Assembly: GCA_963514005.1 (NCBI GenBank)
Contig: OY740807.1
Location: 30,194,001 to 30,258,000, forward strand
From: Raja brachyura
Lineage: Eukaryota
DNA length: 64,000 nt
Direction of reading: 5' to 3'
In this document: positions 132 to 360 of the stretch, one piece after another
Layout of the letters: each line of letters opens with the position of its first letter
Numbering within the stretch: position 1 is the stretch's first letter
The notes under the pieces: model-generated
What the model saw: only the letters and a program-made list of their open reading frames with translations
What the model was told of the DNA's origin: nothing
Databases searched by the model: none
Program-made: the position numbers and the translations under genes

Positions 132-360
132 GGTGTTAAAGAAGGAACTGTAGATGCTGGAGAATTGAGGGTTACACAAAAAGCTGGAGAAACTCAGCGG
201 GTGCAGCAGCATCTAAGGAGCGAAGGAGATAGGCGACGTTTCGGGTCGAGACCCTTCTTCAGACTCTGAAGAAGGGTCTCGACCCGAAACGTCGCCTATC
301 TCCTTCGCTCCTTAGATGCTGCTGCACCCGCTGAGTTTCTCCAGCTTTTTGTGTAACCCT
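132..360. mobile_element. Penelope-like pLTR-derived palindromic element with minimal hammerhead motif on both strands
   Basis: 96-bp inverted arms 168-263 and 265-360 around a 1-nt centre. CTGAAGAAGGGTCTCGACCCGAAACGTC at 266-293 (+) and 235-262 (-). Direct repeat GGCAGAGAGGA at 121-131 and 361-371 (TSD-like). Confidence 0.8.

Follow-up and report, generated by a model that had tools for sequence, protein, structure and literature searches.

The window, the 64-kb stretch of DNA analysed here, carries near its start a short element at 132-360 with a total length of 229 bp. The initial annotation had described a 193-bp palindrome with 96-bp arms and a 1-nt centre, and we found exactly this: two 96-nt arms, 168-263 and 265-360, are 100% complementary across a centre of 1 nt. 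The 11-bp direct repeat that it had reported was also correct. This repeat, CCTGGCAGAGAGGA, flanks the palindrome at 118-131 and 358-371 with a maximal length of 14 bp, and since 358-360 serve both as arm end and as the start of the duplication, only 11 bp of it are unambiguous. Right about the palindrome itself, the annotation had lacked an unpaired extension of 36 bp (132-167) and a second palindrome (959-1172). The features are as follows, with element positions numbered from the C of CUGA as +1.

118-131, plus strand: left target-site duplication, 14 bp maximal, 121-131 unambiguous; single copy at the empty sites of organisms B and C
132-167, minus strand: unpaired extension of 36 bp (Penelope-type 'tail'), positions +96 to +131; its equivalent in 959-1172 lies on the opposite side
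168-265, minus strand: tail-bearing arm, reaching 5' as far as position -3
235-262, minus strand: minimal type I hammerhead motif with a 2-bp stem I; putative cut after 235
265-360, plus strand: tail-less arm, element -1 to +95, final 3 nt common with the target
266-293, plus strand: minimal type I hammerhead motif whose stem I the junction shortens to 1 bp; putative cut after 293
358-371, plus strand: right target-site duplication, 361-371 unambiguous
959-1172, plus strand: second young palindrome of the same subfamily in opposite orientation, with a 14-bp duplication (945-958 and 1173-1186)
1448-1825, minus strand: older, longer partial-tandem copy; its two hammerhead motifs lie on one strand at a distance of 277 bp and enclose ~250 bp of upstream element sequence

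From left to right the order is duplication, unpaired 36 bp, tail-bearing arm running back to -3, tail-less arm running from -1 to +95, and duplication. Both outer junctions of the element are 3' ends of the repeat, +95 on one side and +131 on the other, and at the tail-less end three letters are common to element and target. The predicted folding energy of the hairpin is -204.7 kcal/mol (z -26.5), and the 229-bp product is without coding capacity. The layout of an inverted terminal repeat (pLTR), a one-sided tail and a duplication is already published (PMC3846280, PMC8557442, PMC4209133).

The palindrome at 959-1172 has arms identical to those of 132-360 over their common length. The tails of the two differ at three places, and thus neither was copied from the other. 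The centres differ too: in 959-1172 the arms begin at +3 and +9, so that both hammerhead cores are shortened, and again meet at a 1-nt centre. The tail here is 33-34 bp long (1140-1173), with one shared letter at the tail end and two extra letters at the tail-less end. At each young locus the same 10 non-consensus letters were present on both arms. These two rare young copies lie ~600 bp apart and adjoin an older copy of the subfamily.

To look for empty sites, contigs from four runs were aligned to window 1-1600. In a contig of organism B (run X2, record 17) the segments 1-119, 360-944 and 1173-147x are contiguous, with neither insertion and 15/1004 differences; the same segments are contiguous in a contig of organism C (run X6, record 23), again with neither insertion and with 27/1007 differences. 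The sequence absent from the empty sites amounts to 240 and 228 bp, counting one duplication copy each, and the duplications (11-14 bp and 14 bp) are single copy there. Because both contigs bridge both sites empty, 132-360 and 959-1172 are recent insertions. In run X1, which comes from organism A and may be the source sample, contigs entered the repeat at 4/4 junctions in the expected orientation; by a 31-letter rule one of the four filled junctions was bridged, the other three having 21-30 letters on the element side. No contig among those listed for the four runs over window 1-1600 spanned a palindrome centre, and run X10 covered the flanks of the young loci in part only.

We next searched the window with a profile built from the copies within it and obtained 48 matches, which occupy 4.5 kb of the 64 kb. 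About 90,000 to 120,000 contigs per DNA run fell on the repeat, a figure that indicates a very abundant repeat and is not a copy number. The 3' ends of the 48 matches formed two classes, 19 at +85 to +100 and 17 at +115 to +139, with 2 between and 10 earlier (in this tally one match was mis-mapped onto a neighbouring one). The gap between the classes thus holds 2/38 ends (p=0.0014), and the two preferred 3' ends are 36 nt apart. Fifteen minus-then-plus regions were chosen as head-to-head pairs, and leaving out one with an upstream-only minus part gave 14 pairs; 20/48 matches lie outside them. Duplications were present in 5/15 regions, two of them perfect and three of 11-12 bp with one mismatch. 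In the older pairs the arms are 65-90% alike. Ten such pairs differed less between their arms than random pairings did (21% versus 25%, p=0.006), and their excess of common non-consensus letters over random pairing was weak (p=0.09).

The initial annotation had proposed comparing the palindrome centres of different copies. Among the 14 pairs in the window the centres vary, and the -3/-1 centre of 132-360 recurs once, at 58967-59144, in a different subfamily. The relative length of the arms varies as well: the tail arm reaches further 5' in 7/14 pairs, the tail-less arm does so in four clear pairs (959, 9846, 48040 and 60394) and ambiguously in one (1767), and two pairs are undecidable. At 60394-60527 the tail arm hardly exceeds the tail, which rules out that its partner was copied from it. 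The older copy at 1448-1825, whose 3' end also occurs in contigs of organisms B and C, is adjoined by an inverted tail arm (1826-1936) that starts at +30.

Each arm of the palindrome contains CTGAAGA-A-GGGT(CTCG)ACCC-GAAACGTC, at 266-293 (+) and 262-235 (-). The initial annotation had placed a hammerhead motif in each arm with a cut after 293, and both placements hold, the cut as a putative one. A minimal-hammerhead descriptor matched the window 10 times, against a mean of 0.02 (maximum 1) in 100 two-letter shuffles. Neither the motif nor the hairpin is rare here, as the repeat that carries the motif accounts for 48 profile matches in 64 kb. The sequence has the features of the published minimal motif: a CUGANGA...GAAA...NUH core, a bulged A before G10.1, the G10.1-C11.1 pair and a self-complementary CG at 15.2-16.2. 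The core, the bulge, G10.1-C11.1 and the self-complementary CG are shared with the minimal type I hammerheads of metazoan Penelope-like elements (PMC4209133). Helix II, of 4 bp here, is paired in 95.5% of cells in 22 sequences (19 from the window, 3 from the metagenome contigs L001 and L002), far above slid controls, and in the same 22 sequences its covariation did not exceed that of shuffles (74-393 of 500). Of six arms examined, five have a helix I of 2 bp; in the short arm of 132-360 it is 1 bp, and both lengths are below the 4-5 bp of the minimal type I criterion. In PMC4209133 helix I is 4-5 bp in Schistosoma and 2 bp in D. virilis. Judged on sequence, this shortness lowers the probability that the motif is a minimal type I hammerhead and, given the 2-bp D. 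virilis variant, does not exclude it. A check against hammerhead models, which the initial annotation had called for, came back empty: no Rfam hammerhead family matched 1-1500 or 1470-1600 at E up to 10, and none reached its gathering score across the window. Generic Rfam microRNA-hairpin matches under the gathering score were discarded as shape matches.

We then considered whether the motifs could act within the palindrome. A transcript of either strand carries one sense motif and its exact complement, which makes a cis dimer impossible. In the predicted fold of the palindrome, on both strands, stem II has a probability of 0.000 and the core is 99% paired; the predicted probability of stem II is at most 0.005 in isolated arms and 0.21 with native upstream sequence. 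Since the transcript is predicted to form a 96-bp hairpin, the ribozyme motifs are predicted to be inactive, and on these models ribozyme activity in the palindrome context is unlikely. The claim of a ribozyme on both strands therefore stands as sequence and fails as a cis dimer, with its fold predicted to be suppressed, and the two caveats attached to it, a very short stem I (1-2 bp) and a full hairpin that would compete with the ribozyme fold, are borne out, the latter by prediction. Co-folding of two arms gave no dimer fold, a result of no weight because ViennaRNA does not model hammerhead cores. Published minimal hammerheads did not cleave as monomers and cleaved at a low level as dimers (PMC4209133), and the Anolis element PAc depends on its protein for cleavage (PMC11167929). 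The best natural candidate here for cis-dimer cleavage is 1448-1936. Opposite-strand motif pairs in metazoan Penelope-like pLTRs are 100-700 bp apart (PMC4209133), whereas those of 132-360 are 3 bp apart. We also considered ribozyme cleavage as the origin of the 5' ends and rejected it, as starts at +27 to +33 (4/48 matches) and at +30 to +33 (3/28 paired arms, scored by eye) look like scatter.

In metagenome contigs the exact hammerhead motif was found at 0 loci and a degenerate form at two, which have only the 30-nt core in common and no linked ORF. Three sites in these metagenome-assembly contigs, L002 14-39 (-), L002 1034-1062 (+) and L001 667-696 (+), carry a near-identical core with unrelated flanks. 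The L002 motif, with its palindromic loop 3 (UGCA) and a stem I of 4 bp, is nearer to canonical type I.

The initial annotation had called the element a Penelope derivative. Its anatomy, namely the tail, the duplication, the empty orthologous sites and the varied centres, agrees with this, but no Penelope ORF turned up in the window: among the 150 ORFs scanned (of 167 with at least 75 aa) none matched a Penelope-type Pfam family, the only matches being to EF-hand, integrase SAM-like and RVT_1 families. Pattern scans of public metagenome, viral and prokaryote contigs linked no ORF to the repeat, and the body motif of the repeat had 0 matches in the viral and prokaryote scans. The family assignment thus rests on anatomy. 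The traits of endonuclease-bearing (EN+) Penelope-like elements that we found are a hammerhead in the terminal repeat, an inverted 5'-truncated copy at the 5' end (14 pairs), a tail of 30-40 bp at one end (36 bp and 33-34 bp), a short target-site duplication and, in one case (1448-1825), a partial tandem. On the anatomy of the window copies, the parent is most likely an endonuclease-bearing Penelope-like retrotransposon. Longer copies at 36015-36390 and 35104-35303 extend upstream to a short peptide (NIDFSNF), with a similar peptide at 34453; in the first copy this extent is interrupted by a hammerhead fragment (36226-36300). We take the 7-10 residue peptide upstream of the copies at 36389 and 35206 to resemble a Penelope C-terminus.

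The closest published parallel in layout is Pen2a_Av of Adineta vaga, in which the pLTRs adjoin a shorter one in inverted orientation, the one-sided tail is 31 bp long and the duplication measures 9 bp (PMC3846280). PMC8557442 counts a 5'-truncated inverted copy and a tail of 30-40 bp among the general features of Penelope-like elements and calls the mechanism undefined; a tail of that length also appears in PMC11167929. An internal promoter and an intron ahead of the ORF are described in PMC2377424. Like these EN+ insertions, 132-360 has head-to-head arms with 3' ends facing outward and a tail on one arm (PMC3846280, PMC8557442). Unlike Pen2a_Av, it has no ORF between the arms, a total of 229 bp, perfect arms and known empty orthologous sites, and its duplication of 11-14 bp compares with 8-10 bp in the known insertions (PMC3846280, PMC8557442). 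Biochemical evidence comes from PAc, a Poseidon element of Anolis carolinensis. In vitro, this Penelope protein, a predicted dimer, cuts and extends both target strands, ribozyme cleavage is dispensable, and reverse transcription begins downstream of the hammerhead at two internal sites, one at either boundary of the tail (PMC11167929). The repeat of 132-360 resembles PAc in these start sites and in the use of both strands, with the difference that the start sites are shown in vitro for PAc and inferred from junctions here. The target preference of PAc is AT-rich (PMC11167929), whereas neither of the young targets here is AT-rich.

We consider it probable that the 229 bp are one recent insertion of head-to-head Penelope-like end pieces, whose mirror was built by priming from both target ends. 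The RT-endonuclease of the element, a predicted dimer, would make a staggered cut of 11-14 nt in the target. Synthesis would then be primed by one target end at +131, where the tail ends, and by its partner at +95, where the tail starts; 0-3 nt of sequence would be shared, and a single RNA would probably serve both. Both cDNAs would halt near the 5' edge of the hammerhead, and their ends would be joined with 0-1 nt of shared sequence and the gaps filled. The two 3'-end classes match the two in-vitro start sites between which the Anolis tail lies (PMC11167929). The same 10 subfamily letters on both arms make one RNA or one source likely. Priming from both ends would account for the duplication, the one-sided tail, the tight centres, the finding that either arm may be the longer one, and the arm that is little but tail. 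It also fits one of two origins that the initial annotation had offered, extreme truncation plus inversion, which is supported by the tail, the target duplication, the empty orthologous sites and the varied centres.

The same Penelope-type origin could instead have produced the mirror half by fold-back self-priming of one cDNA or of an antisense template, with the endonuclease resolving the hairpin 36 nt short and so leaving the tail. Self-priming is the published proposal for head-to-head palindromic junctions (PMC3846280), and the tail has been ascribed to endonuclease resolution (PMC8557442). The arms are 100% identical and of a single subfamily, as self-priming would have them, and a quasi-palindrome of 4+1+4 (TCAG-T-CTGA) lies at -5 to +4, where many arms stop. 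However, with a centre of 1 nt neither young locus has space for a hairpin loop, the tail-less arm is the longer one in 4/14 pairs, and the arms at 60394-60527 barely overlap. Perfect palindromes can lose centre sequence after insertion, and trimming of this kind could mimic unequal arms and loop-less centres, as fold-back would require. The in-vitro start sites explain the tail without any resolution step (PMC11167929), and taking these points together we regard fold-back as unlikely. Still less likely is the other origin offered by the initial annotation, a 229-bp palindrome mobilised as its own non-autonomous family, transcribed and re-inserted whole; we think this quite improbable. The -3/-1 centre does recur at 58967-59144, and joint rows at -3 have a depth of 128-221 in three DNA runs (strand not given). 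Against this, the nearest copy with identical arms has another centre and the 14 pairs differ, a centre recurring in two subfamilies fits a hotspot better than descent, and a perfect 96-bp hairpin would be a poor template. As the centres differ between loci, we infer that the palindrome is a stub built at insertion and not a self-propagating family.

Two further explanations were considered. A MITE-like DNA transposon or fold-back element, with the inverted repeats as transposase-binding ends, would be short, non-coding, palindromic and flanked by a duplication, as 132-360 is. Its ends should mirror each other, yet one side has 36 bp extra and the tail is one-sided at both young loci; the matches outside head-to-head pairs, the retroelement-like variable 5' ends and the hammerhead motif also speak against such an element, which makes it hardly credible. 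An assembly or library artefact from fold-back chimeric reads is equally hard to credit. It would give perfect arms and agrees with the lack of bridging of the centre among the listed contigs, but it would not produce exact 14-bp duplications at both loci, sites empty in two other organisms, X1 contigs that enter the repeat at all four junctions, or older pairs with decayed arms.

The preferred reading, priming from both target ends, has a known relative. In L1 twin priming both target ends prime reverse transcription, which produces an inversion inside the target duplication; there the second priming site is far upstream, and the two segments have no stretch in common. In 132-360, by contrast, the two starts lie within 36 nt of each other and mostly the same stretch was copied. 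Our search of the literature, with subscription papers and Repbase outside its reach, found no report of twin priming in Penelope elements and none of such palindromic stubs in cartilaginous fish. Non-LTR retrozymes resemble 132-360 in being short, non-coding, pLTR-related and equipped with a type I hammerhead (PMC7229834; bioRxiv 10.64898/2026.07.22.740005). They are head-to-tail tandem pLTR derivatives with at least two motifs on one strand, whereas 132-360 is head-to-head with one motif per strand, and 1/9 tested dimers cleaved (bioRxiv 10.64898/2026.07.22.740005).

The 5' ends of the copies are also crowded. Among the 48 matches, 23 begin at -10 to +10, and 15/28 paired arms (scored by eye), long and short alike, stop at the upstream edge of the hammerhead (p=4e-7 against an even spread over -100 to +60; p=0.001 against a 25% null). 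The sequence TCAGTCT occupies -5 to +2, the long arm of 132-360 begins at its A (-3), and we take this sequence to resemble the initiator consensus. The crowding, together with an initiator-like sequence and an arm start at -3, suggests a tentative extension of the both-ends reading that we hold possible and somewhat doubtful: the stubs may be complete 'strong-stop' copies, for which the RNA would begin at the upstream edge of the hammerhead and cDNAs from +95 and +131 would reach the RNA 5' end and be joined. About 10 copies that keep -4 to -6 and 7/48 that extend further upstream count against strong-stop copies, and unpaired matches may have unrecognised upstream sequence. Over 1440-1649 the depth in X1 is 7.5-10 million and drops to 2-2.6 million on the upstream side of -3, with 3.5-3.8 million in a subfamily-specific middle; because depth is confounded by subfamilies and summed contig depth is not a copy number, these values neither prove nor refute a sharp 5' boundary, and many copies plainly continue upstream. 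A spliced template, suggested by an acceptor-like CAG just before the motif, was rejected because the copies that start there have no common upstream exon.

At 1509-1546, joint rows connect -3 back to 1509 or 1511 with a single C between, among the rows listed at a depth of 128-221 in three DNA runs. They may reflect a centre that recurs, motif copies in short tandem or a letter derived from a cap; the rows listed are the best 15, and subfamily differences dominate them.

If the strong-stop reading is true, Penelope elements would have two fixed internal start sites, and twin priming would be the normal first step of their insertion. One explanation would then cover the tail, the inverted pLTR and the great number of copies of 100-135 bp, and the hammerhead would be copied uncut. 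In itself, 132-360 is an ordinary dead insertion, of a known Penelope-type kind at its smallest size. Its value lies in clean in-vivo junctions that bear on how Penelope-like elements build inverted repeats and tails, work of a sort that PMC8557442 asks for. Both very young loci have exact duplications, their empty sites are known, and their two fixed 3' ends agree with the in-vitro start sites. Young palindromes of this kind can be used as presence/absence markers between related species, and perfect 96-bp palindromes would probably give rise to double-stranded RNA and make the DNA fragile.

Elsewhere in the window, 37143-37292 (+) is an EF-hand exon closely like calcium-binding protein 7 (PDB 2lv7). 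Tyrosine-recombinase-like ORFs with integrase SAM-like Pfam matches lie at 40817-44380 (-) together with a 633-aa ORF. We take the exon to be that of calneuron-1 and the recombinase region to be, presumably, the remnant of a DIRS-type retrotransposon. Remnants of non-LTR retrotransposons were found at 61053-61856 (-), 7437-7820 (-) and 17939-18571 (+), the first of which matches RVT_1 and is presumably CR1-like. An assembly gap of 139 N at about 21800-21940 is immediately upstream of a copy of the repeat, and 24142-24970 is a tandem repeat with a period of ~30 nt and three open frames.
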